A stretch of DNA of 64,000 nucleotides, from the NCBI GenBank assembly GCA_973895155.1, contig OZ316894.1:4364944-4428943 (forward strand), read 5' to 3'. Made by a program: the position numbers and the translations under genes. This stretch comes from Marsupella aquatica (lineage: Eukaryota > Plantae > Marchantiophyta). The number at the start of each line of letters is the position of its first letter. The stretch's first letter is position 1. Below the pieces are notes generated by a model. It saw only the letters and a program-made list of their open reading frames with translations, searched no databases and was not told the DNA's origin. Below, one piece after another: positions 3,893-38,140 of the stretch.

Positions 3893-4033
3893 GTAGATTC
3901 CATGTTTTTAATAACCAGGGTATATTTTAGACTAACTAACACATTTATTTGTAGAATGAATCATGGTGGGTAGTTAATTTATGACATATTTTTGGGTACT
4001 ATTCTAAATCTCATCTGTTTGTATTGTGTACAG

Positions 4034-6217: not shown

Positions 6218-6757
6218 ATGGTGCGGAAGTTCTTTGCAAATGTGCATTGTTGTTTCCTCCCACTTGGTGAGGAGGAGAAGATGGTTCGAGGGTTCTTTTG
6301 CCGTGGAGGGCTTGTTGACAAGCTATGTACCTCACAGACCGATTTCTTGATTGCAAATACGTGGAAACAGGTTGTGGAGCACTTCAGTGACTATGCTGGC
6401 TTGATCGAGCATTTCACTGAAACCGTGCCCTTCATCTCTACTCAGTGGGTAGAGTGCTCCATTCTTGCCAACAAGCAGTTGGATCTAGGAGAGTTCTTGT
6501 TGCATCCGAGCAGTGATCATGGTCTGGAAGATTCGCCCGAGGATGATGATGGTGAGGCCTACCCTCCCACCTTGTCTAAATGTGACCTGTCACCCATTGA
6601 ACTTCAGATTGCTATGTTTGATTACAAGGAAAGTTGTGCAGCCGAGGTGGAGGCTCAGAGGCTACAAGCCGGTGAAGCTGTTGTGCGGAAGAATTGGAAT
6701 GCCAGCCAAAGGCGTGCTTCATACAAGAAGAGGAAAGCGGACGAGGAGTACTACTAG
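6218..6757 (+). CDS. BRCT-domain protein (CACTA cargo)
   Basis: FANVHCCF..RGGLV..TDFLIA..PFISTQWVECSILANKQLDLGEFLL fits the BRCT pattern (GG turn, W..C helix), followed by an acidic and then basic tail. Intact 179-aa ORF. Confidence 0.7.
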   Translation: MVRKFFANVHCCFLPLGEEEKMVRGFFCRGGLVDKLCTSQTDFLIANTWKQVVEHFSDYAGLIEHFTETVPFISTQWVECSILANKQLDLGEFLLHPSSDHGLEDSPEDDDGEAYPPTLSKCDLSPIELQIAMFDYKESCAAEVEAQRLQAGEAVVRKNWNASQRRASYKKRKADEEYY

Positions 6758-7429: not shown

Positions 7430-8038
7430 TCAATCCTCATCGTCTGCAATAGCTGATGGCATGAAGCCCTTCCTGCGGCGTGGAAAGATGGGAATCACAA
7501 TGGACCATCCTCCCATGCTGTGCATCGGAACCATAATGCATTGATCCACTTGGCTAGGAAAAACTATAGTGTCACTAAACTCAATCCCGCTTGGTGCAAC
7601 ACGGGTTGTGTCCACACGATAAAATCCACACTCATCCTTCACCATGGTAGCTCTTGCTGGAGGTGACATGATGGACTTGTGCCACCTCACCTCTAACACC
7701 GTGGTGGTAAATGAGCCAAAATTAACATCCAAAATATCCAAGACAATGCCACAATAAGGAACCTCAACATCACCGACATCGGTCACCATATATACTCCAG
7801 AGTTACAAGTACTCTTCTTCATATGGTCCGTCCTCCAAGTCCGAAAGTGGTGCCCTGACTCATACATGTGAGTATGACTCATAGCCCACATTGAAGGCCC
7901 CCTAATGATGTTCTGTACATCAATGGGAATGAATGTAGGGCCATGCACTGCAAGGAGACCCTCCATGCGCTCCAAGGCCCATATGCAAAATGATGCATGA
8001 ACACGCTCTCGTGCTGCCCCTATCCGCTGCTGCTCCAC
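7430..8038 (-). pseudogene. C-terminal (DUF4216-like) remnant of CACTA transposase
   Basis: GHHFR..NSGV..YCGIVLDIL..DECGFYRVD..FPSQVDQC..WSIV matches the C-termini of the transposases ending at 43860 and 49063. Confidence 0.85.
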
Positions 8039-8059
8039 CCATGCCTTGCAAGTACTAGG

Positions 8060-8689
8060 TCACATATACATTAGATCCCAATTTGTGCCAACCACTTGAG
8101 CATACCTAGGGTCTAGCTTGACAGACATGCCATATCGACCAAAGGTTGGACATTGTCGAGACAAGATGCGCCATCGCTGTGCAGAATACTTTGGCCCATA
8201 GAATGGAAAGAGCTGAGGCAAGTCCTCGGGCTCACAACCATTAGGGACCACAATATCTACAAGTGCAAATAATCCTAATCCTACGTTAGGGCCCAATGTG
8301 GAGGGAAGGAGGACCCAAGGGCGACCCCAGACTATGATAGGTTCCCTGATTGGAAGGTCCAATGGGAGCCCAAATTGGGTAGGGAATGAGTCCTTTATGA
8401 TGTCCAAGGCTCTCCCACGTAACTCTCTTGGTTCCCGGGCACTAGATGCATCAAGAAAAGGGCAATGGGGTGGCCTCATCCTAGGCGGACGAGACTCCAA
8501 CGACCGTGGTCTAGTACTGACCACTACTCCCCTCTCAATAGGGTGCACACGTGCCACCCTCACCCTATCAAATACACGGTCTATTGCCCGTAAGGTGGCA
8601 TCTAGTGCCGATGGGGGGACCAGAGCTGAGAGCGCTCGACGTGCAACCTCTCTCATGCGGTCCTTAGGGGGAGACCGTACAATAAGAAT
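8060..8689 (-). pseudogene. Truncated SET-domain exon of CACTA element 1
   Basis: WGRPWVLLPSTLGPNVGLGLFALVDI..LFPFYGPKY..RYGM is homologous to the N-half of the SET exons at 39537 and 44829. The C-half is deleted. Confidence 0.8.
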
Positions 8690-8818
8690 CTGTTCCACAT
8701 GTATGCAACAAAATGTTCAGAAAGTGAGAAACATGAACATTGCTCAAGAAGCCAACCTACCCCAACCTAGTAAAAGTTAAAGTTACTCAAAATGGTTGTG
8801 CAAAAGGATAAAACTTAC

Positions 8819-9365
8819 CTCTGGTGTCGGTGGAACATAACGACCGTGGATCCCTAAGTGGCTAACGATGGTAGTGCTCTCGTGAGATACAACGCCCTTG
8901 CATCGTCTACAAGGGCAAGGCATCTTGCGGACTGGTCCAATACCATGAAGAGCAGCCATGGCCGCTCCAAACCCCTCCTCCACTGGCGAAGGTGAGCTGT
9001 ATGCCTGGGGCTCACGTGACCGCCGGCGACGGTGTGACCGATGATGGCGGCTCCTCTCTCTCCTTCCGTCCTCATGACTGGGACGGTGATGACGTCAAGA
9101 TCCACTAGTCGTCCTCCGGGGCAATGACTCACGACCCCTGCTCTTTGGTGAATAATCCCTCATCTACGGCGAATAATCCCTCCTATCCAGTGAGTCATCC
9201 CTCCACCTATCCGGCGTATAGTCCCTCCTCCTAACCAGCGAATGATCCCTCCTCCTATCCGGCGAATAGTCTCTACCCCTATCATGATGCCGGTATCTAG
9301 AGCCAAGACTCGTATCCCCATCATCTCTCTCATCAGACAGAGAGTCCGATGCATAGATCACCATG
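8819..9365 (-). pseudogene. First coding exon of CACTA-1 transposase: R/D/S-rich repeats plus transposase-associated domain
   Basis: MPCPCRRCKG....I..HL..HG motif, ending at donor gag|gtaagt; interrupted by stops. Confidence 0.7.
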
Positions 9366-9815
9366 CCCTGCAACAAATTGAACCATCTTTGATTAATGCG
9401 TAGGGAAGGATCCAAACCCTAAACCTACCACACAAACCCTAACCCTAAAGTACAATGCCATACAGTACGTTACAAGGCCTTAACGTCGTTTTTCGAAGAA
9501 ACCCTAACATTTAACGTCGTCAATGGACCCGCAAACAATGACCTTTAAAACACTAAGTACGATGTTTATCCAGATTAACGTCGTTAAGTACGATGTATTA
9601 TGTACATCGTTTCTCGTAACGACGTCTGTAACAACGTAAAATCAGGAAAACGGCGGATCCGCGAGGTTAGGCATCCCCGGTCATTTCCTTTGGGAAACAT
9701 TGGGGGAGTATCGAGGGAGTGTTTGAATGTGACTCACATTCAACATTCCCCACCTCTAGTCCTTACCTCTCCTTGCCTCCTCTACCTCACATAATCGCTC
9801 ATAGAATAGTCTACC

Positions 9816-11963
9816 ATGTCGTATCCAGGCTATCTTCCCTATAGTGTGAACTTTGATGCACTGAAGGTGGGTCTGGAGGATCCAGAGGAGTTGGAGAAGG
9901 TGCATCGAGCCCTACGTTCGACACATTCACTAGTTCAAGCATTCAACCACAGTTGGCAATTCATGGGAGGACAAGGAACAAAGGAGTCCAGGTTTATAGA
10001 ATACCTGGAGAGTATTGAGGCCAACACTCCTGCCGACGAGGAGGGGGCCGAGATTGAGGAGGGGGCCGCGATTGAAGTGCCTAAATCCGCGCCCGAGTTT
10101 GATGGGGCATCAATTGATATGCTACCTTCGTTCCCGAGTCTACCAGACGATGGTTGGGATGATCCTGCCTTCACTGGGATTCAACTAGATTCTCAGGCAG
10201 CAGCTCGAACTCCTATCAAGAGTCAAGTGACAATCCCACATGAGAGATACAGGCCAGAAGATGATAGGAGGGACCATCGGCAACATAGGAGGAGGAGGAG
10301 GCAATCTCGTTCTTCATCAAACAGCAGCACTGAAAGGAGAAGGCAAAAGGGGAAAGGATCCAATGACCACAATGCAGGCACTTCTAGCAAGAGACGTAGG
10401 GGAGATCGACATACAAGAGCAGAGAGGAGAGAAGACCACTCACGATCGTTTCCTCCAGAGCGGCGACGTCCTTCTCAGCAAGTTGCAGCTGCTTCTGCCA
10501 ATAGGGAGCACCTTCCCACCATCACCCTTGCCGCTTTTGATGCTAGGCCGGACGTCATGGATGAGAAAGCACTCACGAACAGAGTGCAGACGTGCGTAGC
10601 TAAACACTGTCCTGGTTGGACTACTTGGAAGGAGCTTGTGCATAACCAGAAGAAGTTCCAATTGCTCCTGAATGACGTGCAGGCTGGATTCAGAAATGGG
10701 CGAGAGATTGACTACCGCCACATTAGGAAGAAGATTGTGAATCACCTAGCTGATTGGCGTTTCAGGTGGAGAGCCAAGGTCCAAAAACTGAGATGCTTGA
10801 GGACAGGGGATTACAAGAAACCTGATGGGATGAGTGAAGAGGACTTCAAATTGATTGTCTCCGAATTGGAAGCAGCCCCAGACACCCCAGTTGGCAAGCG
10901 AGTGCATATGGGAGACAAGGCCACTGCTGTTCGAAAAGCAAGTGGCAAGAAGGTGACTAATTTTTGGGGGCAGGGAGGATGGGGAGGATTTCTTGCAACC
11001 TATGTAAGTGCAATGACTCACTCTATACTCATTGAAGTCTGCATTCGCCAGTTCGTGTGCTGCTGCGGTGTAATCCTGTGATTTACATCGTTTTTTAGTA
11101 TTAACGTCGTCTTGGCCGCGCATTACCCACCCTCTTACTACGTTTTTAGTATTAACGTCATCTTGGCCGCGCATTACCTTTCCTCGTACGACGTTTTCTT
11201 AGTAGTACCTCGCTTTGAACTACGTTAGCACTACATTAACGTCGTACTGTCGACGTTAATACTATGGGGTCCCCCTAAATGTCTTAATGGACAACGTATG
11301 TATTAGTAACGTTGTATGATGATAGGTAAATAACATCGCCCTGAATGACGTAAGTTCCCTTTGCTGCAGAAGCAGAAGTATGGCCGAGATGCCGAGCCGA
11401 GTGAGCAGGAGCGGCTATACTCTAAGCGATATGGCCCGGCAGCCCTATGGGCAAAGCTTGACTCTGTTCCGGAAGACCACCCGGTAAGTGTGCTAGCTTG
11501 TTCAGTACCATTCCATAGACCTAGACTAAAACTGTATCTTATGCAAACCTAGACTGAAATTGTATCTTGTGCACAGGTGGATTGGACTGCACCAGAGGGT
11601 TTAGTAGCACGACCCATTGAGGAGGATGAGGAGCCCAACACTGTAACCGTGGAGGAGGGTACCCAGGAGGAGGACCCAGTACCTTGCGGTCAGCAGGGCT
11701 CCACTTCTCGTGACCTTTTCCCTGCATTGGAGACTCATAGGGCCAGAGGACAAGGAAGGGAGAGACAGAGGGAGGAGGGAGATAGAGATAGAGAGAGAGG
11801 GAGAGATAGGGATAGAGATAGGAGAAGGAGGAGTGGTGAGAGGCGGTCCACTAGGGTAACACGTAGCATTAGGCAGATAGTGCCAAAACCTAGAGGCAAG
11901 GCTCCACCCTCGACTGCACCGGAACCAGAAGGCAGTAGCAGTGCCTCAAAGCAGGATGCATAG
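9816..11963 (+). CDS. CACTA ORF2 (TnpA/Ptta-like), 3 exons: 9816-11003, 11370-11483, 11577-11963
   Basis: Canonical GT/AG junctions in phase 0. F(R/K)NG..ID and GQGG....F|intron motifs are shared with ORF2 of the other two elements. Confidence 0.7.
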
Positions 11964-14900
11964 CAGTATTAGTTGCGTTGGCGACGAGGCGGAGGATCGA
12001 GACGTGATAGGCCCCATTCTCAACGGCATTAGGTTGTAGGTATTTCAGTAGCAGGAGGTCCTCCATGCATTATGTACATAGTTTTTGCCATTTTGATTCA
12101 GGCCACCCATTTGTGGTGGCACCTCATTCCGGTTTACAATATGTAAAAACACATGGTTATATTGTGTGTGAGCTGAACCCTAACAAGGACCCCACCCAGA
12201 CAGTGCAATGTGTAATAGGACGTATGTACTCCCGTTGTCGTGGTAACTTTGGTGCAAATAGTACACCTAAGTTACACGGGTATATTTTGGGTTTGCAACA
12301 TCTCGACTTAAGATGACAAATAAGACCATAAGTCGGGTACCTATGCTTGTAGCGGGTTGCCGATTCATAAAGAAACGAGGAACGAGAGGAGGCAACAACT
12401 CTAAGGCAAGAAAGCAACAATGGACGGAGTGCACGGGGCGCCAGTTGGATTTCCAAATCACGTTGAATTTCAGTTTTGGGTTATGGAGAAAGTTCATTTT
12501 TGGCAATTCATCGTGCATCACTTTGGTGTGCGGTTCCTTCGGGAGGTTGAAGAATCGGCTCAACCTTTGTTCTTACCCACGCTTACATATACACATAAGT
12601 GGGTTATATGTTTTTATATTTTAACATAATAGCTAGTTTGGTGATTCATCATGCCTAGTTACAAAATTTAGGCATCCTATGATGGGTTAGAGTGATGACA
12701 AAGCACTTCTAAATAAAGTATTGTGGGCTATATGAATAATTATCATAAACTAGAGTATAGGCCTACTAGGTGGCTTTACTTTTCCACTAGATTTGTGACA
12801 TAACAAAATATATAGGGATACGTGGCATACATGTGTAAAAAGGCCTTGCATGGTTGCATGTCCATTTAGAATCAAACACATGGCCAATTAGGTGTCGAAA
12901 GGAGGATAAGCATGGAAACATGCCCAATAGCATCCAAATACCTTGTTGTTTACATGTTCAAATATTATTGGACCATGTGTACCAAAGGGGTGAGTCATTA
13001 CCCCTCCAAAGCACTATAAATAAGAGGGGTGGCATGGTGAGTTTTCTTTGTTATTCCAAACTTATATGCAAGAATAGTGTGGGGAGTATAAGAATTCATA
13101 AAATGTGCTTGGAAGCTAGAGATGTGACATTGTTAGAAAGTTATTAAATAGTAAAGGTTGTACTATATAAAAAATCATTATGATATATTTTTCTTAGGGA
13201 AATAGTATTCTAACTTTGATCTCCTTGATGAGCACACCAAGTTTGCTTTTGGAATCACTTGATTTTGGTATAATACTAGAAAGTTATGATGACTTGAAGG
13301 TTTAGATTATGCTCAAATAGAACCATATTTTTCTGAGTTTGAATATTGCTTATAATATTTTCCTAGAATAAGATGCATATTTGAAATTTTTTCCTGGAAA
13401 TAGATAAGAAGCTATGTCATGCCTAGGAAAAAATTTTGAGGGTATATCTATCTTTAAGTGAGATATATAGTATGGTGACGGTGATAGGGTCTTCGTAGCC
13501 TGCAATCTAGATAGGTCCATCATTTTTCTTTGTACCTGTTGATGGAGATAGAGTTTTGACTCGAACCTTTGAGGGATGATAGGATAGTAAATACTTGGCT
13601 TGTTTGATATGGTACAAAGGAAATTGACAACCGTAGGTGAATTTCCTATGTTCAAGAAGCTTGTACCGTGATTCTGAATTACAAGATGGACCTCAATAAA
13701 GTTCCTAGGCCTAATTTTAGTATAGATTATAATGTTCGGGTGATATGTCGCCAAAAAACTGAGTTTCAAGCCTTCATCATCAGAAACTTTGGGGAGTCGG
13801 CATATACCATGATCATTTCATCCCCGATTCCATTCGTTGTTCCCATGACAATTGAACGATTTTGGGTAATGATCATAGTGTTTTATTAGCACGTCGTAGC
13901 GCATTGTTCTTCCGACAGACAGAAGCCCGGGCTTTCCCGACATCACCCACGAACTTCACGACACCGTATACGTCCTCCTTTATAAGACCTTTAACCACCA
14001 CAGTACATCGTTGAGCCCTACATAAGCCAACGTACGTCGCACAACAAGAGCACGATACATCATCCCCTACTATGTCAACTTACCCATACGTCTCAAAATA
14101 GGTCGTAATTTACCAGCCACGGACGACGCTAAAATAATACGACGTTTAGTCCATTGCACATTACGATGTACTAGACGTGGTTAATGTTTCATTACGTAGC
14201 CTGACACGACGTTTATGGGTAAAGTTAAACACGAGAGTTGGGTATATTTTACGTAGTCTGACATGTTGTAAACCCATATACCTCCTATTGTACGACGTTA
14301 AGAACAATGTGCTGGACGTGGTAAAGAGCGTCTCCCCAAACGTGGTAATTAACGTCGCTCTATTGACGTCATGAATGAGGTCTTTCCTCCGCTGGCCATA
14401 TATGTCGTGATTAACGTCTTCTAAAAGTCCGTTAATCAGCCGTAAAATGTAGTTGTGTATTCGTGGACGGATGGGTCCCTCCAGACCCTCACTATCAATA
14501 AACATAAGGTGAGTGCACCTCCTCAGAATTGTTTGCAAAGAAATAGATAGACTTGAAGTTCCATCATTGTTGTCAAAGAGGTGGACAGTATACTTTAATT
14601 ATTTTAGTATGTTATGTATCACTATATTCATTAAAAGTTTCTTTTAAAAGTCTAGAAAATGAAGACTAAAGTTGTTTTTTCTCAACCCAAATCTCTTAAA
14701 CATATTGAGCCCCAAAAGATGCATATGCTTTTTTATTTCTATTTTTCTCAACCAAATGTTTAATATTAAATTAAAATCTATATTTTAATTACTTTATAAA
14801 TCAAATTAAAATAAATTAGTCCAAAAATAAGAGGCCAATACCAATCAAAACATAAATCCAAAATGTAGTCATATCTATGATGATAATCAAGGGTCAGAAT

Positions 14901-15569
14901 GAAATTGACCCACTACATAGATATTATTATCATGTATAGTCTAGTGAGAGAGCCTCAAACTAAGCATATACTAATTAACTGTTTACTATATCCTACATGT
15001 TCAAGACATTTTTTCTACATAATTATATATGTACACTTTATATTAGAAACTAGAGCTACCCTAAAGTAATCCATGGTTACGCGGGCAACTTTTGTATAAT
15101 AGGCAGGGGTCTACATTTTTATATGGACTAAAAAGTTGACTATCTAAAATAATTAAATTTGAAAAACCTGGGTTTCCCACTCAAAACTTTTTTCAAGTCA
15201 TATAAAAGGTTTGGTTTTTCATCTTTTTCCATATGAAATTAAAAATATTCCTATATATAATGTAATTTTTATTAAAATATTTTTATAAGTTTAATAAAAA
15301 TCCTAAAAATCTGGCTAGTTTGGCTGTAGACCCTTCTATTAAAAAAATGTCATTTAATTTGGTTTTGATCAACTTTTTTATATCAAAACCTCGGGGGCCT
15401 CAATCCAAGGGGTGCCCCATATCACGCACGAAGTTTTGGGGGATCAGCCCCTAGTTCTTAGAACTTTCCAAATAATTGCCTACTATTTTGTCTATGAGAA
15501 CCGGAATAATTGTTTCCAAGTATTAAAGTGTTTATTAATTAAAAACTTTGCGAGTGATACCCTTGGAGT

Positions 15570-16123
15570 GAGCCCCTACGATGTGATTCACCTCAGCTGA
15601 GGCTACGTCCATGAGAAGACACGAGAGCTTTACTGCACTCTTTGCTCATCAGAATTCACCAAAGAAATGTAAATAATTGATGGAGAAATGGAGGAGTTAG
15701 TCTGCAAAGGATCCCGAAAAGGATGCAACTAAAATCAAGAATTTCCCCACATTACGATTAAGAATTCTCTTCAAATCCAAGTTAGTTGAAGGTTAGACAT
15801 GATAACTAACCTAAACATGCATTATGTGAAAGGTGGAGTCAACGCCCCTTGAGAGTCAGGCTACTATCTCAAGTAATTAATCTGTGGACCCCCTAGCTTA
15901 GGGTTCAGTTGAGCTAAAACATTACTGCGTGTAAAATGTATAAGGACGCAACTGTCTAGGGATACTAGAAATTCCCAGTGAAAAGGAAAGATTCATGAGA
16001 CAGAGGAAGATGTTTGAGACGAGGCAAAGCTTTAGAAGGTCTTACTTTGAATATCTAAATTTTGAACTCTGCACTTTGACGGATGAAGTCAAAAGAAAAT
16101 CTGAGCGCTGCCACCTATAAACA
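15570..16123 (-). mobile_element. Probable copia-type solo/partial LTR
   Basis: gatgtgattcacct...ctacgtcca...gagctttactgcactct resembles 57150-57216 in the copia LTR, and the segment ends in ..tataaaca. Left boundary uncertain. Confidence 0.45.
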
Positions 16124-16254: not shown

Positions 16255-16271
16255 AACACCTATTTGAGTAA
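16255..16271 (+). repeat. Left TIR of the giant element
   Basis: aacacctatttgagtaa, preceded by TSD tcat. Confidence 0.8.
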
Positions 16272-16323
16272 TAGTGTGACTTTTCATTTCCAGAAATTCC
16301 CAAATGTAAATTGTTGATATTTA

Positions 16324-16857
16324 TTAATTAAACTTGTAGAGTTTCGAAAGGAAAGGAATAAGTCTATCTTTCAAGAAAGTGTCTTCTTCATTGCCCATAT
16401 ATGTAGGTGGGTATAAAGATGAGAAAAAGGGATTGCATATGGTCTTAAGGAGTGAATCCTCCAAAAGAGTAATGTTTTCCCTTATCTTGTGTGGCATTTG
16501 GATAAATACATAGTTTATGATTTTGGCATAAAGGTCATTAGTGTCTTGATCTCGACCAATCAGCTGCAATTTCTCTTTGCCAAAGAAAAATTTGAGAGAA
16601 ACTCTTTCTTCTTTGCTGAGCAAGAGACCCAAGTGTTGCACAAGGTCCCTTACTGGCAAGCACGACCAAACTCCCACGTCAAAAAACTTGAAACAAAATT
16701 TCATAAACTCATGCAAGTATGGCCTGAGGAGTATTGTTTTATTTCCAATGTTGAATCCCTTCGAGCTGTTCACAGTATGAAATGATTTTGAATAGTAAAG
16801 AAGAAAGCCATCCATGTCAATAACAAGCAATCTCTTCGCCTTTGACAAATTCACCAC
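16324..16857 (-). CDS. FCP1/NIF HAD-family phosphatase-homology exon
   Basis: Acceptor caacag|gtg. Contains RLLVIDMDGFLL (DxD retained), LRPYLHEFMKFC..FDVGVWS, LLEDS and YPPTY.G..EDTFL. Confidence 0.8.
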   Translation of the reverse strand: MVNLSKAKRLLVIDMDGFLLYYSKSFHTVNSSKGFNIGNKTILLRPYLHEFMKFCFKFFDVGVWSCLPVRDLVQHLGLLLSKEERVSLKFFFGKEKLQLIGRDQDTNDLYAKIINYVFIQMPHKIRENITLLEDSLLKTICNPFFSSLYPPTYMGNEEDTFLKDRLIPFLSKLYKFN

Positions 16858-17073
16858 CTGTTGATTGCAAATAAAAAATAAATCAATAAACACTGATATA
16901 TGCAATTTGATAAACTAAAATCAAAATAATACTTAACAATTGATAAGAATTTAAAACAAGGCTTTTTGAGTTATATATTTATATTTTTTGAATATACAAG
17001 GAGTATGTTTAAACAATTGTCCAGCTAGATAATCTCAATTATATCTTTCATTGTTTCTATACTAAGAATGAAA

Positions 17074-17775
17074 CTACATAATCTTTTTCTCCAACAGTTG
17101 GAGAACCACTTTTCGTCTATTTTTGGGTCTATCACTCCAGTTCAACCTAAATGGTTTTCCTAAACTTTCACAATCTGCAAACATTATCAAAAATATCCCA
17201 CAATTGTGAGAATCATTCTGTTTGGGAATATCTTTTGGATACAAATGTATCCAATTGCAAGCATTGACTGGTTCTAATTATTGGGCATCAGTCTCATCTT
17301 CAATGTATCGTGATAAGTTTAGGAGCACTTTGGGGTCTTCATTGTGGTAGGAATCAAGATAGGTTAAAGTTTTACTCTTGAGGTCAATTACAGCGAGAGT
17401 CCAGTGAAACCCACAATGAATTGGAACAAGTAATTTGTCACAGTCAAATATACTGTATCCCAATTTGGTTGACCATCGGGAGATTTTGGAATTGTAAGAA
17501 TAACCTACCCCAACAAGTTTTGTATAGAACCAGGTATTGAAAAAGTGACATCTAAATGATTTGCACAACATCAATGTTTCTCTCTCCTTCAATAAAATCA
17601 TATAAGAGTTAATAACATCAGACTTCAACCATTCTCGTGGGCAGAGACATCTCATTACTTTACGAGTAATATGGAAATCTTCGATTGTTGTCAAAACCTC
17701 ATTTTGATCCAGGCTTCGACTGAGGCATGTGTCTACTGCAGTCTCGTTAGTTTTATCAATTTGAAGAGAAATTAT
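17074..17775 (-). pseudogene. Ulp1/SENP (peptidase C48) SUMO-protease exon
   Basis: WLKSDVINSY, FFNTWFY, PIHCGFHWTLAVI and YLDS; after an in-frame TAA (17278-17280) comes PKQNDSHNCGIF, giving a complete H-D-C triad. Acceptor ttgcag|ata. Confidence 0.9.
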
Positions 17776-18339
17776 CTGCAAGCATACAATTTTCTTTCAG
17801 AAATTGATTATGTACCCAAGAGCTACACCCCATGTGAACATGTATCTAATATTGTAGAAGCTTACATAAAATTGCATGTGTTGTACCTTTGAAATGTTTG
17901 ATCCGGATGTTTCCGATGTTGAGTTTCTCTCCATCAGGTCAGATTGTGAAAGTCTCTCTTTTCCTCTTTGAGATGTTGACTCTTTTGGCGGATCCTGTCC
18001 ATTTGGTTGTATGAACATTGGATGGTCAATTGACGAAACACTGTTCCATCTATCATGAATGTTTGGCGATTCGCTGCATGGTACGACCTTGCTCATCAAA
18101 CCTGCTGCAAGGAATGAATCATCTTTCATATCTTGTGACTTGCAATTGAAGGAAAGCCTTTTCATGTCAGACTCAGACTCTGTGCCAGGAGATAATTTTC
18201 CTTTTCTCAACTTCCGTCCACCAAATGGGGGTCGAAGTTCTCGCAAAGTGTCTGCATATTGCTCGTATGTTGCAGAATCAATTTTGGGATCGATTCTCAT
18301 CCACAATTTCGGTGAGTTGAATGCCTTTCTTCTTGTCTC

Positions 18340-18860
18340 TTAGCTCGTTGTCCTTCCCGTTAATGTTTCTCTGCTTTTTGCTCTCCTCCTTTTCTTGACC
18401 CTTTTTTCTTTTGTCCGTCTCTTTGTCAACCTTATACTTCTTTGTCCTCTCCGCATCAACCTTATCGTTCTCCTCCGTCTCTTTCCTATCCGTCTCTTTC
18501 CTATCCGTCTCTTTCCTGTACTTCTCCTCCTCCTACTTATCTTTCCGCTCCCTCTCCTTGCTCTCTTCCCTATCCTTCTCCTCCTTCTCGTGTTTATCTT
18601 TTTTCTCCCTCTCCTCCCTCTCTTTCCTATCCTTCTCCTCTTTATCCTCCTTATCTTTCCTATCCTTCTCCTCTTTCTCCTCCTTATCCGTCGCTTCCCT
18701 CTCCTCCCTCTCTTTCTCTTCCTTATACCTCTCCTCCCTCTCCTTGTGTTGTTTTTCCTTATGAACCATCTCCTCCTTGAGCTTCCTTGCTTCCTCTTCA
18801 ACTTTGGCCTTTTGTTTCTCTTCGGCCTTTTGAACTTCTTGCTCCCTTTTTTGTGCATCA
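18340..18860 (-). repeat. Low-complexity purine-rich tract encoding K/E/R/D coiled coil
   Basis: (GAG/AAG/GAT)n-like; it generates several spurious overlapping ORFs. Confidence 0.85.
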
Positions 18861-21800
18861 TGTGTATTCCTTATCGCCTCTCTTTTGCAATATCTACAAT
18901 ACGGTCGAGGTCCCACCCCAAGACTTTGAATAGGAATATGGATACATTTTTTTGAATTTCCCTCAATCGGATAGCTCATTTGTTCTTCGTCATCATCTTT
19001 GTCGCTATCCTCATCCCACGGTCCCCGAAAACCTTCACCTTGCAATTCCTGGCCCAATTGTGGAACATCTTCATTCTCACTGTCATCCCCTATTTCACTT
19101 GCCATTTCCTCCAAAGAACCTACATCTTCACCTTCACTCTCAGGAATAGTTTCTCGACTGTCTGAATTGTCTTTAGAGGGGGTATCATCTTGGCATGCAA
19201 ATGTGATCTCTCCTTTTTTTTCCTCGAAAACTTTAGAACGCCACTCTTTCCTCTTGGGCTCATCCTCACTCAAGTTGGACCTCTTCTCGATTTCCTTATC
19301 AGCAGAAAATTTTCCACTCACTCTCAATTGATCCTCTTCAGTTATACCTCTCTTAGACCTCTTATGATATTCCCCAATGATCTCGACTGGATGGTCACCT
19401 AGTGCAATCAAAGGAAAACTTTAATATACTAGACAAGTTAATGGAGATGGAAATGAACAAATTTCTATACATGATATATGTACAGTTCACGGAACGGTGT
19501 TCCGCCATAGATTCCAAAAGATTTACTCAAATATACTCAATAACTGTATTTGATATCAATTTGAATAATCAATAACCAATCTGACAAGTGCTTGGATTTC
19601 ATTGCAGATCCTGAGAAATCTAAAACGCTCCATACTACACTAACATTAACAGAATGAACCCAACACATTCGAATGAAAAATCTAAGATGGAACAATCTTT
19701 CAGCACCCATCTTAAACTGAATAAACTAGATAAACTGAATAAACACATTTAAATAAACTGAAATTCAGAGAATGGTTTTCTGCAATTATCCTAGTTCATT
19801 ACTCAAACAACTATTTAGTCCTTAGTTGTCTCAATGTTACCTCTTAAAGGTCCTTTTGGGATAATTGTAGGAAGCTCATAGGGTATATAAGGAGTCTGCA
19901 ATAGGATCACTTTGTTCCTGAAGTCCATACTCTCGAATGACTTGATAGATCTCATCATCACTGAGTCGATAGTTTTCTTTTAATGTGTCAGTCAAATCAT
20001 CTCGGACATGATAAATGCTTCTCTTTTTCTCGACCTTTCTCTTTAGGAGGTTTTCAAAAGATTCTCTGTCAGGACATTTTTGAGGCACTTCCTCAAATCT
20101 CGGAAACAAAGTGTTGAAGTAATTTGTGGTTGCTTCATGACTTTCTATTGAGCAATAGCTTCTGACATTGACTTCGAACTCCTGAAATTGGCAATGTGAA
20201 ATTAGTCTCAAACCATCTTCAGAAAGCAATAGGGAAACTTTTACAGCAAACTAAATTTGAGGAAAGATCATTCTTACCATAAGACATTGAGTTAACCTGC
20301 GGCCTTCACCAAAACAGATTGCTGTATCTTGAATTGATGCTTCATGAGAAGTTTCACTAGGTACTGATAAAATTCAGTGCTCTTCTCTTCGACAAGACTC
20401 TCTTCCGTTTCCGCTTCTTCAAAATTCCTGATGTTGTCATTTAGGCAAGCCTGAATGGCCTCCAGCCTGTCTGGTTGATCTTTTGAAGCATCAAATGCCT
20501 AATTGAAAAAGATATACGAGACATACTGGACTACTTTGCCATCATTTTCCAAAAGTTGTGTTCCATCCCAATCTCCTCCTGTTTTCTTCTGCATGTATTG
20601 AGCCTGCACTGTGATGTACCCTGGGATGCGACACATTGCCGAAGTCATGTCCATTACCTCCATTGGATTCATGATCAACACAATCTTGTGTTTTGGACAA
20701 CTGACGACCGCTGTTGCTTTGAAAAATCCGTCATAAAACTCTCGGTTGTATGGACCAAACGCTGGGGACGTTGTCAGGTCAAAGAAGAAAAAGTTGGCTT
20801 TGTTTTTGTAACCCTCGGCCAATTTTCTAAAAAACGTTATGCTCCCAAATCCACTTATTGATCTAAGACGGAAGAGGTCATTTGTCTTGACAACTCTCAA
20901 GTTTCCAGCCTGGTCAAACATCATTTGAATAGACTCAACAAGGTTCTCAAAAGGCGCAGGAAGTTTTTCAATCAAGTGAGTCCACTTGCAATTTTGATTA
21001 ATTCCCATCTTCAGAACTTTCTCTCCCATAGCCTCGCGCAGCAAAGCAATCCTCTCAGAATCAAGATGGAAGAACTCCTTCACCTCTTTGAACTTACGCT
21101 TGAGCTGCACCTTGTTCAACTTCTTGAAATCGTTCACCCTAGTTTTCTCTGTAACTTGCTTCAGGCATATCACCTGAAAAACCCTCTTGTACTTCTTGCC
21201 TCGACAGTATTGCTCAAATGATCTCCACTCCTTTTCCGCCACTGGATCGTATGACTTATCATTTCTCTTCTCAGGATAGAGAGAGATCTTCCTTCCCTCA
21301 ATCAGATAAGTGGCTATTTTGGACAAGTCCCGGTCTTCAAGCCCTTGAAGGTGTGTAAAAAACCTTCTCTTCGGATGCCAAGTTGTGCGCTCCTGATAAG
21401 GTTTTGCATCTGCCTGTCGAAGTCGATTATAGTGAATGAGTTCTCCTTCCTCCAACATCCGCTGCACTTCCATCCACTTTTGAAATGTCTCGTCTGACAT
21501 TTCAAATAGGAAAGGTGACATTTCTACAAATCGCCTCTGGCCATTCACTATAACAGCTGTCGGGTAAGCGATCCTTGCAGGTTTCAAAAATGCCTGCAAA
21601 CACAGTTCACAAAAAGGTGAATTCACTTTTGAGAAGACATGGACCAGCTAGGGAACACTATTTCGTATAAAAACTACTTGCATAAGGCACCCAAAAATCT
21701 ATGAATTACATTGTGCTTACCTTATACGTTGACTTGGCTGACTTTGACAAAGCTGGATCCGGTCAACCAGCAGAAATCCAAATTGAGCGGACTTGCTTTG

Positions 21801-23209
21801 CCATAAGAAGGAACTGGCTTTCTGGCATCGATGTCCGATTCATGTTGTTCAGAGCTTGAGACAACCCCATTATCTGTGTGTTTCCTGACATATTGAATGG
21901 AGTCCAAAAACGATAGGCATTGACAGTTTGAAGCAGATCCTTCCTCTTTGGATCAAATTTGGGATCTAACATCAGCATCTTGTAAGCTTCGATGGTATGT
22001 TGTCCACCAACAATCCAAAAGTAACAGGAATCAAGAACACTTCAGGATGGTCTTGATTTGAACGGTGTTCCATTGTACATATTGTTTGCCTTGGCGGATT
22101 CAGAATCCCATTGGATGGGGACAAGGTAGACAGTCTTCTTTTCCAGAGAAATTGATGAGTGACCCATGAGTGACCCTTTTAACAACTCACAATATTTTCT
22201 ATCAAAGACTCTACACTTGTAATCGTCTGGCCCTATCTTACATCGTAGTGTATTAATAGTAATTGATTCACCATCAAAAAGAGTGAGATCTTTGTACTCT
22301 GTCAAAAGGGAATTGAACAATTCAGTTGCACGTTCTGCAGTCAACTCTTCTGGCAAGTTTCCTGGTCCTATCTCCCCTTTCCTCCCAATGGAAAACAAAT
22401 TCACAAATGGTGATCCAGTGCTCTCAAACACTTCAACTATGTAGGCTGCAATGTTTTCACCAGTTGTATCTTCGGGAGTCAAAGGCATCATCTCCTGTCC
22501 TGGTGAAGGTCTGTACCTTGGAGACAGTTTGACTAGATCATCAATTTGACTCTGATCAAATTTTGTGTAGTCATTCATTCGCATACAACGCCCAACCATA
22601 GTTTTGGAATTCACATCTTCCATCAAGAAGCAAAATGCTTCTTGGAAGTCTTCCATGCCTAGGTTCTTCTTGAAGAAGCAACCATTGACCCGATGATCTG
22701 ATATCACTCTCAGAGTGCCACAGTCCATTGCTATGTAAATGTTTTCATTATAGAGCACGATTCCCCAGCTATCAACACTGTCAAATTTCACTGGATGGAC
22801 TACCAAAGCTTCATCGCAAACAACTTTCTTTATCTTGGGACCTCTGTATTTTCTTTACAGTGTGTCTTCAGCCGATTCAGACACCTTCTGTATTTTTCCT
22901 CGAGGATTTGATGTACTCTCTTCCACCTTCCTCTTTCCTTTCCCATCATCTTTGTCCTCCATCTGTAGAAATCAATATGATGTGTCTCAAGAATTAAATT
23001 CTTAGATCGATGACGCAACCGTAGATAGAGAAATAGATTCTGGCCAAAACTTTTTATTCACAAAATATGTAACGATTACAAATTGTTTCTGAGAGGAAAC
23101 AAATCAAGCAGCTCTAGTGATATTGTGCCTATGCTGCAAGTCTAATCTTCTCTAGTTTGCATAGAAGGTCTGTAGCTCATGAACCATTCACGGAATAGTG
23201 TTCCGTGAA

Positions 23210-23749
23210 TCAATTCATCTGATCCCATGGTGCACTTTCAATGTATCCTAAATTCCAACAATCTATTAGAAAGTCCCATTTTAGTCTTGGATGTAACCGA
23301 TCAAAACTTTTTGCGAATTGGTTAATGTGCTTAGAGGACATAGTTCCAAAAAACCGAAATGTAGGATACTTTGAGTAGAGACATGATATTGTCTGAGAAA
23401 GATGTTCTTCTGGAATTACTAATGGGTGTATGCCTTTTAAATCACTTTCTGTGATTTTAATGATTCCCATCAAGTATGTATTATTGACTAGATGATTCCA
23501 CTTTCTTGAGAGTCCTCGTAAGGAGAAAAAACTAAGGATGATTGGGTGTGTTAGATTCCCCGACTGAGCCCCATGGTCAAATGACATTTTTATTATTGGC
23601 CATATTATGTTTACAACAATGTCATCCGGAAGTCCGGGAATAAGATTCCCAGATAGCTGAGTTGCTGACTTCACCAATTCCTGTTCGGAAAGTATTCTCA
23701 CAAAGACCGGTAAGAAAGATTCAATTTTTTGTATTGAGCATCTGTCCAT
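23210..23749 (-). CDS. F-box-like protein (cargo)
   Basis: LIPGLPDDIVVNIIWP...LRGLSRKWNHLV is a typical plant F-box signature in an uninterrupted ORF. Confidence 0.65.
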   Translation of the reverse strand: MDRCSIQKIESFLPVFVRILSEQELVKSATQLSGNLIPGLPDDIVVNIIWPIIKMSFDHGAQSGNLTHPIILSFFSLRGLSRKWNHLVNNTYLMGIIKITESDLKGIHPLVIPEEHLSQTISCLYSKYPTFRFFGTMSSKHINQFAKSFDRLHPRLKWDFLIDCWNLGYIESAPWDQMN

Positions 23750-23974
23750 TGCTCCTTGACGTCTGTTAATTATCACAATACAAACAAGTTATCTCAGGAG
23801 ATCTATAGAGAAAAGCTTATTTGTTTCAATTGACAGACATTACTGATGAGCATTCCTAGTAGCATTGTCGTTTTCCATATATTTAGATGATTCACGGAAC
23901 GGTGTTCCGTGGTACATGTTAGTTATTTAGTTTAGAGTTCTTGGATTAATTTTAGACAATATCTAGGGAAGTAT

Positions 23975-24361
23975 ACGGAATAGTGTTCCCTTCATCCAGT
24001 GCCTGACGGGATTAGGCACTCACGGAACTGTGTTCCATGGATCCAAGTGTATGTCTAGATCAGACACTATGAACCATGTTTCCTGAACCAGGGAGTCACG
24101 GAACAGTGTTCCGTTCATCCAATGCTTGATGGGATTAGGCACTCACGGAACACAGTTCCATGGATCCAAGGGTATGTAGATCACAGCCTATGAACCATGT
24201 TTCCTGAATCAGGGAGTCACGGAACAGTGTTCCGTTCATCCAATGCTTGACGGGATTAGGCACTCACGGAACTGTGTTCCGTGGATCCAAGGGTATGTAG
24301 ATCACAGACTATGAATCATGTTTCTTGAAGTAGGGAGTCACGGAACATTGGTCCGTGGATC
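23975..24361. repeat. Tandem array, ~121 bp x ~3.2, two palindromes per unit
   Basis: Units start at ~23975, 24098, 24219 and 24340. Each contains acggaacagtgttccgt and cacggaac(tgt/aca)gttcc(a/g)tg. Confidence 0.9.
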
Positions 24362-33715: not shown

Positions 33716-35125
33716 TTATATTTCTTTGTCTATCTCATTAACATGGAGAGGAAAACTCTTTGGCGTTGTAGGGCACTTCCCCATGTTTTTTAAAGTTTTG
33801 GCTAATGCATGATAATGCCTTGCGAGAGCCCGGGCATCTGAAAGGTATAACATTTTCTCATGCATTTCTAGTCATTGCTGTAAATATGGAGGGTTACAAT
33901 CTATCATCCTTTTTTTATGGTTCACCATAAGGCATGGCTTAATTCATTGTATATTGGCAGATTTTCCCCTCCTTCCAGATTTGGTTCATGAAATTTGAGC
34001 CACAAGATCCGTCAAGGCATTGCTAAGCCCGGGTCTCATAAAGGTATTTTTCTGTCAATTCTTTTTAATATGTTTAGGTAGGGATTATCAATGATGGTTT
34101 TGGTGAAGTTTTTACTAATCGCCTTCCAATTGCTATACTTGTCAGATGTCTTCATCCTCTACAACTTCCACCACATCAGATTCCTCTTCCGATGAAGAAA
34201 GTCATCCTCCTCCTCAACCTGAACCAACTGTACGTCGACCTAGTGGTCCACCACGCCAACTTTGTGGTTGTAAAACACTAGTACATTTTTGGGCCTTTAT
34301 TCGATAGGATTTACATCGGATCCCTTCAGGAAAATTGACGCAAAAATTTCTATCATCCGATGCAATTCCCAACGCACTTTGCGATGCGCAAACCATCGCA
34401 TATCGACCATCGGACTTCCATCGGACTTTCCGATATTTTTTACGACGGACGTTCCGTTGTAACGTGTTACGGATATTTTATGTCCGTTGTAAAATGAATC
34501 GGATAACTAACACGCGACGGCACACGACGATTTCCTATGTCCAATACTATTTAAATCGGTATGTCCGATATATTTGACATGGCAATTTGCGAAGGAATTT
34601 GTATCAGACATTGCGTTATTTATAATAACGGAAAGTGCGTTACTTTTTGTATCGGACTATCCGATATATTTAAGATGGGAACCTTGAAGGAGGGGTCCGA
34701 TGCGTTGGGGATGGGAAAGTTCGAAGGCAGCAGCATTGGACACTGCTATATTACCGATACGGATGGTAACGGACTTGCAACGGATTATCAAATGTTCTGG
34801 GGGTGGAATACAGGGTTTCATGGGTGGTTTTTGGGGGGTTTGGGTATTGGTTTAGGGTTGAAGGTGACATACACCAATTAGGAACCAAAGATAATGCTAT
34901 AAACACGAGGTCAAAATATCATATTCAAAAAGGGGATCACCCCAATATGTACAAAATGGATTAGGCCTACTGGGTAGACCCATCCTGGTCGTGATGGCAT
35001 GATAGAAGATGTAAAGAGAGCTTTGACTAGAGACTACACTGAGCTATATACAAGGTACCTCCGAGTGAGTGTCTAATCAAAGCTGTCTAGCACTAGATAC
35101 CCGACCACCTAAATGCAACTAACCT

Positions 35126-37477
35126 CTAAAAAGGTGTGTTGCGTCCCTTCTTCTTCTTTGGGCGAGAACGAAGGGTGGGTACAGGTCTAGCATCATGAGA
35201 GCCCTCCTCCCTCTGGCTGCCCACAACCGTGGCAGCCACCTGCTCACCAGATGGCATGGGTTGGCCTGATGCAGGCCTAGACCCTGACCCACTAGATGCA
35301 CCGCTAGGGTGGTCAGGCAAGGTAGATGTCCCACCAACCCCCGACACGGCAGAGTGAAAGGACGCCTCAGCTCCTCCCGCAGACCTGCTAGAGTGATGGG
35401 ATGGTGCGCCGACAGATCCTGTGGGTGGCCCATGTCGTGCTGTACTCCCACCAGACTCACGAGATGGTGCGCGCCCTCTAGATCCACCATCCGGCACGTC
35501 GCCACTACCTCGTCGGGAAGGGCCACCTGCACCAGATACTCCTACGTGATCGCCTCGTCCCATGCCATCACCTCTACTACCCCCTGAGTGCCTGGGCCCC
35601 GCACCCCGTGATGCTCCACAGCGATGGGAGCCCACACCATCAGCAGCATGTGACCCACCCCTCCCTGCTGATGGGGCAACGGCACCAGATGGGGCAACAA
35701 CACCTCGGACCTGAGGAGTAGGGGTGACTGTGGGCACCCTCCCCAACCCTGCCTCAGCATCCTGCTCAGAATCTGAGTCCAGCTCCTCCGACCCAGACCC
35801 CTCCTCATCCTGCGCAATAGGGTTTAATTGCAGTTAGAATGAATGGTCCCGACCATAACTCTAACAAATTCATGACAACCTTAAACATTATATCACCCTA
35901 GGGTGAACACTTACCTCTCCCAACTCATCCTCAAGGTGGCGCTTTAGAGCGCGGGGTCCATCCGTCTTTGCCAAATTCCTCTCCAACGGCGCAATAGGGC
36001 GACCATACTCCCGCTCCTGAAATTTAAAGATCCAAACCATAGAGGCCAGGTTAATATCAAATCTAGTATTAGCGTGCCCTACCCTAAACCAAGCCACCCT
36101 ACATAGCCCTAATGTAACCTTAAACCATAGTTCACCCTAACTTATACTCTACCCTAGTAAAAAATTAACGTTAAGTATGTTCATTCAAAAATTTAAATGT
36201 TTTGCCGAGGGGTCCGATTTAGAGTCCGATACAGCCTGCATCGGACGTCTATCGGATGCGTAACAAGAAAAATGGCATGACACGGTGTCCGATGCTGCTT
36301 CCGATGCAAAACCTATCGGATGAGTATCGGAAAGAACAGGCCCAAGAGCAAAAATGAGTTTTGCAAAGGGTTTAAACAAAAGACATAAGGCACAAACAAC
36401 TCATTCTTCGTGCGAGGAGTCAGGTGATCAGGGAGTCGAGGTGGGGAGGAGAGGGAGGGCACTTACAAACTCAGCCTTCAATCGATTGGAGCCGCCTTGC
36501 CCCATCCGGTGAGTGATGGTTGGCCTCCCCTGCACTCTCTCCAATGCTGCTATGATGTGCCTTGGTGGTTTGGGGAGTCTTGCTGCCTGAGCTGCCCATT
36601 GTTGCAAGTTCTGTTGAAGGGGGAGGATATCAACATTCTCCCCAGCCTTTCGCTTCTCCTCTGCCAGCCTAATTTCGTTGTCCCAATGTCTTCTTTTCAG
36701 CCAGGCACGGACTGAGAGTTCCTCCTCAAGCCAAGCCGCCCACTCATCCGGGGAAACATCGTCTGGACAACCCTCCTCCCTGATCACCTCTACATCCACT
36801 GCCATATCTCCAAGGTACTTTCTGAATTTCTCTCGCTGATGATTGCGCATGTCTGAGAGTGATGCTGAAATTCATTTGTTTAGGAACCTGTCATCAATGT
36901 AGGCCCCGTTCCTGAACCGTTCCTTCACCTGCTCTCTGATTCTCAATCTCTCTTCCTCCTTCTTCTTGCCCCAGTAATCCAGTGGCCCCAAATTGGCCCT
37001 CAGCACCTGCTTGAATTGGCTTCGGAATAGATGGTAGCTCTTAGGCAATGGACCACCACCCGAATTGAGAGCTAGCTCAGGCCTGAGAGCTCTCTCTGCC
37101 TCCTTTCGCCTCTGCTCCTCCAATCGCACCTTCTCAATTGCCCTAGCTTCTTTTCGAAGCTTTTTCTCTCGTTTTCTTGGAGACAGTGTCTCCTCTGCAT
37201 CCCCCTTGCCTCTCTTTGCCTCTTTCTTCCTCTTCTTTGCCTCCTTCTCACTTGCAATGCTTGCAGTAGCAGTCTTCTCTGCCTCACGCCGAGAGGCATC
37301 AATCAGCGTTTGGAGGAGTGGGACTACTCTCTCTGCGTCCTCCACACTCAGCCCTGCCTTGGCCACAAAAATGTCCCTCATAACTTCATTGTATGGCTGG
37401 GACGGTCCCCCTTGCTCTCCACCACCACCTGATCCCCCTTCGTCTCTCCCACCACCTGATCCCCCGCCCCCCTCCAT
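35126..37477 (-). pseudogene. CACTA-3 ORF2 (TnpA/Ptta-like), frameshift near 36870
   Basis: FRNGAYIDDRFL and HRMGQGG..F|gtaagt; later exons ~36017-35915 and 35809-35126. Confidence 0.75.
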
Positions 37478-38140
37478 CTCTCCTCCTCCTTCAAGCTCTC
37501 CTCCTTGATCCAGCTTCAAAAAAATTGAAAAACACCAAGTGCGAAACGGGGCCCGACGCGCGGGTCTTCGCACCTGCATCGGTTCTTTTTTCCGAAACAA
37601 AACCTGCTGCTTCCGATTCTTTCTATTTTGGACTTTGCGAAACCAAAGGTATCGGACACGCAATCGGACTTTCCGAAACTATCTGCTTCGGACCCCTCGT
37701 CCTTTTCTTGTGGCCGTGTATTTACCAAGTGTGGCCCGTTTCCTATTGCATCGGACCCCTCATGAATTTATATCGGATACCTCTTGGCTTTCCCAAAGGG
37801 GGTCCAATATAATGTTTTGAATTTGGGTTGGGTATAATGGGATTGGAGGGTTTAGAGTATAATTTAGGATATTTAGGTTTTGTATGGGGTAAGGGCACAT
37901 GGTTGGAGTTATTATTTGCTTTCATATTTGAATCCGCGTTTTGTAGGGCTCTACATATGTGAACGGGACAGTGAACGTGTCATGCATGTAGAGGGACCTC
38001 TTGCAAGTTTCTTTGTTGCGGAGAACAAATTTTGGGGTTTGTACCGGACTATGTAATTTTTTTGATAAGCTATGGTCTTGCATGCTTAATATATTGGGCT
38101 CTAATTAATGATGCAATTGTGTATAGAGTCTTGGTGTTTT

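Follow-up and report, generated by a model that had tools for sequence, protein, structure and literature searches.

Here we describe a gene that joins a predicted ParB/Srx nucleotide-binding fold to a methyltransferase (MTase)-like domain, and that resides in a Sola-like DNA transposon of the liverwort Marsupella aquatica. The window analysed is a stretch of 64,000 nucleotides (assembly GCA_973895155.1, contig OZ316894.1, positions 4,364,944 to 4,428,943 of the forward strand), and all coordinates below are those of the window. The limits of the element are apparent from its ends, its transposase gene lies on the opposite strand from the spliced ParB-MTase-like gene, and a 19-bp palindrome is confined to it; the end of a sister element repeats the gene order, the catalytic PPY motif has been lost, and the lesions in the window copy vary among samples. 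We propose, with about an even chance of being right, that the intact product would be an accessory self-recognition protein, which would bind the palindromes of its own element through the ParB-like half and act, without catalysis, as a grip or scaffold through which the promoters of the element would escape silencing. The locus would thereby extend to a land plant the ParB-based self-recognition that has been proposed for algae, and, besides a bounded element with a candidate site of 19 bp, it offers a sister family that has diverged and, in another sample, a copy that appears to be open.

A bounded Sola-like element

A restricted inverted-repeat search identified the two terminal inverted repeats (TIRs) of the element, which are perfect over 17 bp and imperfect over about 70 bp. 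The score of the 70-bp alignment was reached by none of 1000 shuffles. Among the five perfect inverted repeats of at least 15 bp in the window this pair is the longest, and it alone is flanked by a direct repeat of 4 bp (TCAT on both sides; the chance of such a 4-mer match is approximately 0.004). TIRs together with a 4-bp target-site duplication (TSD) are features of Sola elements (PMC10741241), and they bound the gene within a eukaryotic DNA transposon, as a reading made from the sequence alone had supposed. The AWWT/AWDT target preference described for insect Sola elements (PMC3845634) is not matched by our sole site, TCAT (ATGA on the other strand).

When a nested CACTA element is taken out together with its TTT duplication, a 19,998-bp element with divergent gene blocks remains. 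The CACTA parts the accessory genes from the transposase gene, whose product matches DUF7869, which we take to be the Sola transposase domain. Candidate acidic motifs in the transposase are HDKMD (54056), LDNA (54615) and GHTHEDVD (54723), and an in-frame stop lies at 54209. We rejected the possibility that the ParB gene belongs to the neighbouring CACTAs, which are nested insertions with TSDs of their own. Membership of the Starships was also rejected: the element ends in TIRs, is flanked by a TSD and encodes a DDE-type transposase, no tyrosine-recombinase captain was present among the 22 open reading frames (ORFs) of our Pfam gene scan (which may miss small decayed genes in 24.4–29.6 kb), and the exon 1 proteins gave no Pfam match to DUF3723.

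At its left edge the window takes in one end of a sister element that is oriented the other way; it has an open MTase-like exon, an intron of the same phase and a third exon. The sister and window proteins are 26.8% identical over 373 amino acids (aa; E 5e-41). No Ulp1 gene was seen in the sister element end (1–5794). The sister NIF copy (3974–4582) is without the DxD catalytic motif, which the copy at 16324–16914 keeps.

Gene structure and relatives

The sequence-only reading had quoted peptides of a ParB/Srx-like domain and a degenerate amino-MTase-like module, reading through isolated stops. Six-frame translation recovers these peptides at the place given for them, on the minus strand, in a gene of three exons and about 952 aa in total. 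YKCRVFDRKYCELLKGSL, YLVPI, FWIVGGQHTIEAYKML and LSQALN share a single frame in 22962–21721, and NFFFFDLTTSP, FYDGFF and EKSTEFYQYLVKLL are located in exon 2. The introns that had been anticipated are present, both of them GT-AG (intron 1, 21720–21594, 127 nt; intron 2, 20277–20182, 96 nt). The stops are indeed isolated, but AICFGEG lies in a different frame, after a 5-nt duplication at about 20329–20338 that separates LVKLL from AICFGEG by a frameshift and that the earlier reading had bridged without mention. The damage to the window copy amounts to four stops and this one frameshift; the exon 1 stops are codons 37, 308 and 401 of the translation (first bases 22857, 22044 and 21765), and that of exon 2 begins at 20501.

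Stop-free relatives cover exon 1 (P0003, 55% identity; P0004, 59%) and exon 2 (P0005, 49%), and a profile of exon 1 retrieved, from 1.84 billion proteins, 35 at E ≤ 0.001, one of which (P0024) is a protein of the liverwort Calypogeia fissa (CAM6103508.1 locus). Thus the quoted peptides are more than chance. In P0023, P0024 and P0035 a single ORF spans the exon 1/2 junction, which supports both the splice and the fusion. No full-length relatives of 640–2000 aa were found among 1436 candidates, which is weak evidence. Pattern matches in metagenome contigs (558 and 305) and in GTDB genomes (46) yielded no confirmed related locus, and a tblastn search of phages gave nothing better than E 1–5. None of the 18 family proteins scanned receives a name from Pfam, and sequence-profile searches of the PDB gave nothing under E 0.1. 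The suggestion that the module is prokaryote-derived fits its predicted fold, on which such an origin would rest, but these searches found no close prokaryotic or phage relative.

A predicted ParB/Srx fold

The fold of the exon 1 product was modelled by AlphaFold2 on P0004 (34 sequences; predicted local distance difference test, pLDDT, 85). In Foldseek the first 16 rows for this model are ParB, Noc, PadC, Srx or SbnI (best E 5.2e-3, probability 1.00), with no row at E ≤ 0.001. The VIA structure search with residues 196–345 ranks PadC (Z 8.1; root-mean-square deviation, rmsd, 3.0 over 99 residues), KorB (7.6), SerK (6.6) and Srx (5.8) first, and the first eight rows belong to the ParB/Srx family. 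These models predict a ParB/Srx nucleotide-binding fold in exon 1, the fold that the sequence-only reading had named. A PH-like domain is predicted ahead of it, residues 5–152 of P0004 matching PH/PTB folds with a middling Z of up to 4.6. In ESM features, the nearest clusters to the ParB half (P0003, 225–415) are DUF3723 (0.96) and ParB_N (0.91).

The residues of the predicted pocket are well kept among aligned family members: the Arg of P..Y.CR in 14 of 15, the Gly in 17 of 17 and the Asn of ALN in 22 of 22. The arginine motif GERR(xRA) of ParB is replaced, however, and the family has GQH[T/S] (H in 16/16, T or S in 15/16). The register of the GERR, Arg (QPR-like) and Asn (EN-like) positions was taken from a profile alignment with 28 bacterial ParBs, for which the N15 SopB relatives were too uniform to be used in building the profile. 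Judged by defining motifs, the protein would fall outside the CTPase-clamp ParBs and probably work like a ParB-type accessory factor.

A palindrome confined to the element

Allowing up to three mismatches, the 19-bp palindrome CACGGAAC-N3-GTTCCGTG gives 22 strand-matches at 12 places, where 0.6 would be expected. All 12 places are in the net element, and none is in the nested CACTAs or in the parts of the window outside the element. Sites lie on both sides of the ParB gene and ahead of the transposase gene, and six of those in the main cluster belong to a tandem repeat of 121 bp on the upstream side of the ParB gene. In a leave-out test, with a matrix built from these six array sites alone, the top seven non-array matches (23893, 23189, 19488, 52091, 52183, 18032 and 22056) are all inside the element; the individually significant ones are 23893, 23189 and 19488, whose scores were reached by 0, 0 and 4 of 200 shuffles. 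The exact palindrome occurs in IMG/VR at two isolated sites, with no clusters.

A ParB fold beside palindromes also brings to mind a scaffold for transposition, in which a nucleotide-gated ParB clamp would load at the palindromes, spread or bridge, and so join the distant ends of the 20-kb element or hold an excised copy. The fold itself, the conserved pocket Arg and Asn, the presence of palindromes in both arms of the element and the fact that the fungal look-alike, DUF3723, is typical of giant Starships are all in keeping with this. We nevertheless consider it quite unlikely, as the GERR arginines are swapped for GQH[T/S], no ParA-like gene occurs among the 22 ORFs scanned, and the sites gather around genes rather than termini. 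The earlier suggestion that the protein might act as a clamp is weakened by the same swap, and by the helix-turn-helix (HTH) that the ParB profile comparison did not demonstrate.

An MTase-like domain that has lost PPY

For the C-terminal domain we modelled P0005, the relative of exon 2. Named methyltransferases make up 37 of the 43 Foldseek rows listed, with MTA1/MTA9 and CcrM (permuted) as the top four (E 0.02–0.06, high rmsd), and the top VIA rows are Trm14 and RlmLK (Z 6.5–7.0). A fold search of BFVD gave no match at E ≤ 0.001, with named DNA methyltransferases among its weak rows. In glocal fits to a beta-class MTase profile (30 sequences: YhdJ and 29 non-redundant ones of 71 extracted), Z was 4.3 for three family sequences, 2.5 with exon 3 included and 3.5 for four sequences. 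Motifs IV, VI, VII, VIII, X and I fall in register in this alignment, in the permuted order; the order IV, X, I had been noted from the letters alone. Hhalign was not significant for either MTase or AAA profiles; as it missed even the ParB domain, which the structures support, it is underpowered here. We hold it quite probable that the domain is a permuted beta-class MTase by ancestry, an estimate that draws in part on the ParB-MTase architecture published for Ectocarpus (see below). Of the two folds named by the sequence-only reading, structure searches thus support ParB/Srx and, weakly, MTase; for the MTase module no profile or structure score is significant and the ESM features point elsewhere.

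They point to a P-loop (AAA/Zot/STAND-like) ATPase as the source of the domain, which would make the protein a fusion of ParB and an inactive nucleoside triphosphatase. All Atlas rows shown for residues 200–415 of P0005 are of AAA/Zot/nSTAND3 type (0.91–0.94), the family's S..GFG[K/S/T] resembles a Walker A motif, and an AAA control profile (21 domains) attained Z 2.2–2.9 on three of four single sequences, which do not discriminate MTase from AAA in the glocal test, and 3.15 against the MTase value of 3.5 on the four-sequence profile. On three-sequence profiles the AAA control gave only 0.9 and −0.3, however, and its fit covers the first ~100 residues rather than the X-I-II-like block. The model shows two consecutive strands as expected of the MTase beta6-beta7 hairpin, no P-loop protein appears in the 43 listed Foldseek rows, and the Walker B acid and the invariant Lys are missing. 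A P-loop origin is very unlikely in our view.

At the motif IV position the four family members read FDLT, FDGT, FDAT and YASI, so that none has (D/N/S)PP(Y/F/W). Beyond it, F-G-[E/D]-G is found in all three members that reach it and VRSYC..ES in 2/2. Because PPY is missing from all four, open frames included, its loss is fixed across the family and is not decay of the window copy. The eroded catalysis of the sequence-only reading is confirmed to this extent; the erosion is common to intact relatives, unlike the private stops, a distinction that reading had missed, and the DPPY or SPPY that it proposed to look for in open copies is not there. From these motifs, the C-terminal domain is likely non-catalytic, and the protein would stand outside the catalytic beta-class MTases. 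With the catalytic motif gone from the whole family, the protein looks more like a reader or scaffold than a writer. In N4CMT, changing SPPY to APPA abolishes activity (PMC8885841), and the known eukaryotic N4-methylcytosine (4mC) enzymes, as described, retain SPPY (10.1101/2021.02.12.428880; PMC8885841).

If its active site has been rebuilt, the protein could still be an active writer, with the ParB half targeting the palindromes and the MTase domain laying 4mC or N6-methyladenine on the element, or modifying some other substrate. The motif-IV Asp (3/4), F-G-[E/D]-G (3/3), the X-like K/R..FY..L (3/3) and the acidic end of the II-like strand (2/2) persist at only 27–50% identity, so an S-adenosylmethionine pocket may survive; a liverwort employs a beta-class 4mC enzyme (10.1101/2021.02.12.428880), and a writer role has been proposed for the Ectocarpus protein. 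Given the absence of PP(Y/F/W) from all four members, the SPPY of the known eukaryotic enzymes and a Gly-rich loop one residue shorter than FxGxG, we regard this as rather improbable.

Recent decay of the window copy

We compared the five lesions with contigs of four public runs (two studies) that cover the gene. The 5-nt duplication is in none of the four, and the stop at 20501 is missing from all three runs that cover its site; the stops at 21765 and 22044 are each missing from three of the four runs, and that at 22857 from one. Run X3 has none of the five lesions. Its main contigs carry 31 substitutions, 30 of them listed, and none of the listed coding ones makes a stop, one substitution and the last 12 bases lying beyond what X3 resolves and its separate contigs not necessarily representing one copy. 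Since the lesions vary among runs, the stops are recent, sample-specific decay that is private to the window copy. C-to-T changes in a CG or CHG context, the pattern expected for methylated DNA, account for three of the four stops. A paralogue of ~81% nucleotide identity is present in three runs, and the family is low-copy in the public runs examined. Domestication of the window copy by the host was rejected in view of the sample-specific lesions and of the neutral divergence described below.

Proposed role

We suggest that the intact product would bind the CACGGAAC-N3-GTTCCGTG palindromes as a dimer through its ParB-like half, while the probably non-catalytic MTase-fold domain and the predicted PH-like domain would serve as grips on DNA or protein. 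The bound protein would keep the element's promoters open and so protect the chromatin of the element, following a logic like that of VANDAL elements. A co-carried SUMO protease and a phosphatase of the type acting on C-terminal domains (CTD-type) would fit a part in resisting repression. We infer anti-silencing from the VANDAL analogy and from the position of the sites, which flank both the accessory and the transposase genes. A fuller version would see here a complete land-plant, Sola-like self-addressing kit in the style of parS/ParB, in which a PH-ParB-pseudomethylase on the palindromes brings in the SUMO protease and the CTD-type phosphatase that the element itself encodes, and would unite such proteins in one eukaryote-wide superfamily of ParB accessory factors that includes DUF3723; this we think unlikely.

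A number of results count against the self-recognition proposal or its components. The P0005 model is poor (pLDDT 44), fold searches with the MTase domain gave no match at E ≤ 0.001, a local hmmsearch with the beta-class MTase profile did no better than shuffles, and Pfam PF01555 gave no match at E ≤ 10 for P0002 and P0005 or at E ≤ 5 for window positions 1–840; the ESM rows and the four-sequence AAA score given above belong here as well. For the ParB half, the family profile is colinear with the 28 bacterial ParBs but not significantly so (score 17.0, E 0.17), the DNA-binding part of the comparison scores 13.3 against a shuffled maximum of 25.3, and the comparison demonstrates no HTH after the nucleotide-binding domain, neither model spanning the exon 1/2 junction. 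Six of the palindromes derive from one tandem amplification, those on the transposase side are individually weak (31 and 65 of 200 shuffles in the leave-out test), and the palindromes could be sub-terminal sites of the transposase, yet their distance from the left end is 3–8 kb. A single copy documents that the transposase and the accessory genes are linked. Finally, of 28 coding differences between the window copy and X3, six are synonymous (27% expected, p 0.67), so that the window copy diverges in a neutral-like manner from an open copy.

This last result, along with the death of the window copy, the low copy number of the family and the tendency of large elements to bear cargo, would suit a captured passenger gene without function for the element, the palindromes then being transposase sites or an unrelated local repeat. 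We find this highly improbable, because the order ParB-MTase gene, gene X, NIF gene, TIR is kept in the sister element, with open frames, at 27% protein identity, and a like architecture is reported in the brown-algal Sola1.

Relation to known systems

The closest described counterpart of the self-recognition protein is in Sola1-1_Ec32 of Ectocarpus, an element of 21,549 bp with AACCG termini and a 4-bp TSD that carries, on the opposite strand, an accessory protein of 1104 aa with ParB-like and N4C/N6A MTase domains (PMC12477816). Our element resembles it, as described, in being a TIR element of ~20–21 kb with a 4-bp TSD and similar termini (AACAC here, AACCG there), and in an accessory gene opposite the transposase that encodes ParB and then an amino-MTase (~952 against 1104 aa). 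It differs in its land-plant host, its predicted PH-like domain, its Ulp1, NIF and F-box-like genes and its defined palindrome, and PPY is lacking throughout its own family; the likeness is one of described architecture. For the Ectocarpus Sola1 TSD a bias towards a final A is described, and the main text of that paper contains no mention of palindromes (PMC12477816).

In Plavaka transposons of red algae, the ParB-like gene PAG3 is reported beside inverted-repeat arrays, and binding to its own transposon has been proposed (10.1101/2025.02.11.637652). The ParB-like accessory gene, the adjacent arrays and the proposed self-binding are shared with PAG3/PAG2. By the published description, however, the ParB of those elements is joined to a 2OG oxygenase, a gene of its own encodes the N6 methylase (with SET), and the host element is of Plavaka/EnSpm type. 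VANDAL anti-silencing proteins of eudicots likewise bind motifs in their own element and are functional analogues; they belong to another transposon superfamily, and homology is neither shown nor expected. According to the Bostrychia paper, experimental proof of transposon proteins that recognize self DNA exists only for VANDAL (10.1101/2025.02.11.637652).

Like bacterial ParB/Spo0J, KorB, Noc and PadC, the window protein would have the nucleotide-binding-domain fold, the Arg, Gly and Asn positions and palindromes nearby; it differs in having GQH[T/S] for GERR, insertions, no ParA among the ORFs scanned, a spacer in the site and a spliced, fused gene. With CcrM, YhdJ, MT-A70/MTA1, bdelloid N4CMT and Marchantia DN4MT1 it would share the order of motifs IV–VIII then X-I-II, a predicted Rossmann half-fold and the motif-IV Asp, but unlike these beta-class amino-MTases it has no PP(Y/F/W), a shortened motif I and no PF01555 match. 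MT-A70 partners of the MTA9/METTL14 type are inactive, and by analogy the MTase-like domain may work more like them.

DUF3723, a domain of unknown function common in fungal Starships (10.1101/2025.02.28.640899), is the nearest ESM match of the ParB half and likewise a gene of giant mobile elements. Our protein lacks a Pfam DUF3723 match and resides in an element with a TIR, a 4-bp TSD and a DDE-type transposase, not one with a tyrosine-recombinase captain. The ESM link does suggest what the commonest of the unexplained Starship genes might be, and we found no paper that connects DUF3723 (or Starships) with ParB in its title or the start of its abstract.

MTases linked to ParB have been described from algae and from phages, and MTase domains that are inactive from DIRS1 elements (PMC4738411); the Ectocarpus paper cites Iyer et al. 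(2011) for green-algal cases (PMC12477816). Our literature search found no description of a land-plant ParB-MTase transposon protein, though Iyer et al. (2011) may list examples from basal plants. What was known, then, is the accessory fusion of ParB with an N4/N6 MTase in Ectocarpus; new here are a land-plant Sola-like element with a putative PH-ParB-pseudomethylase, a defined candidate site and chromatin-related cargo.

Features of the window

Coordinates of the element, its genes and its sites are collected in Table 1.

Table 1. Features of the Sola-like element and of the sister element end, in window coordinates.
Feature	Position	Strand	Remarks
Sola-like TIR DNA transposon	16255–56482		40,228 bp with nested CACTA; 19,998 bp net
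Left TIR	16255–16324	+	Perfect part 16255–16271; starts AACACC; preceded by TCAT
Right TIR	56413–56482	−	Perfect part 56466–56482; followed by TCAT
NIF/FCP1-like HAD phosphatase gene	16324–16914	−	PF03031, E 1.1e-10; DMDG motif; adjoins left TIR
Ulp1/C48 SUMO-protease-like gene	17100–17796	−	PF02902, E 1.7e-20; one stop
Gene X	17797–19420	−	Acidic and K/E-rich repeats; C-terminal stretch like counterpart in sister element
Palindrome	19488–19506		~370 bp downstream of stop codon of ParB gene
ParB-MTase-like gene, exon 3	20181–19876	−	101 codons and stop; motif II-like strand VRSYC..ES, helical tail; conserved in sister element
ParB-MTase-like gene, exon 2	21593–20278	−	Helical region, then MTase-like core (IV-like FFFFDLT; X-like EKS..FY..L; I-like CFGEG); one stop, 5-nt duplication frameshift
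ParB-MTase-like gene, exon 1	22962–21721	−	414 codons; predicted PH-like, then ParB/Srx domain (P..Y.CR, LVPI, FWIVGGQHT, LSQALN); three stops
Palindrome	23189–23207		~230 bp upstream of ATG
F-box-like ORF	23210–23788	−	Upstream of ParB gene; weak, PF00646 E 0.14 (below cut-off), motif by eye
Palindrome cluster	23893–24357		Sites at 23893, 24021, 24097, 24144, 24218, 24265, 24339; degenerate site at 23974
Nested CACTA	29592–49818		TTT target duplication
Inner CACTA, within nested CACTA	34276–44609		AAA duplication
Three degenerate palindromes	52091–52300		At 52091, 52183, 52282; just upstream of transposase ORF
DUF7869 (Sola-like) transposase	52541–55856	+	Two ORFs; PF25273, E 1.2e-36
Sister element end	1–5794	+	Open MTase-like exon 1–840; same-phase intron; exon 3 from 936
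Sister element end, further parts			Gene X; NIF 3974–4582; related TIR ending at 5794

Several other features were observed in the window. Each of the nested CACTAs encodes a Tnp2/DUF4218 transposase and carries a further ORF in which a SET-like domain occurs (39537–40493, PF00856 E 1.4e-5; a similar ORF at 44829–45644), and they have sub-terminal palindromic motifs of their own (TTTGCGA/TCGCAA; ATCGGA/TCCGAT). A third CACTA-like remnant occupies 7430–11081, with a decayed SET-like ORF (8060–8716) and a TnpA-like ORF (9810–11081), as assigned by eye and by short inverted matches to 39981–40067. Just beyond the sister TIR, the ORF at 6143–6757 is BRCT-like by eye and has no Pfam match at E ≤ 0.1. 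Many ACGT-containing motifs (ACGTCGT, ACGACGT) at 13860–14600 possibly form the sub-terminal array of another element.

A high-copy repeat resembling a long terminal repeat (LTR) occurs at 15085–15641 and 57130–57250 (79% alike), with many loose ends in all runs examined; the second copy precedes Copia and Ty3 remnants at 57.6–63.5 kb. Upstream of the Sola-like transposase, at 50700–51500, are three-copy repeats of 143/265 bp, probably a duplicated promoter or leader.

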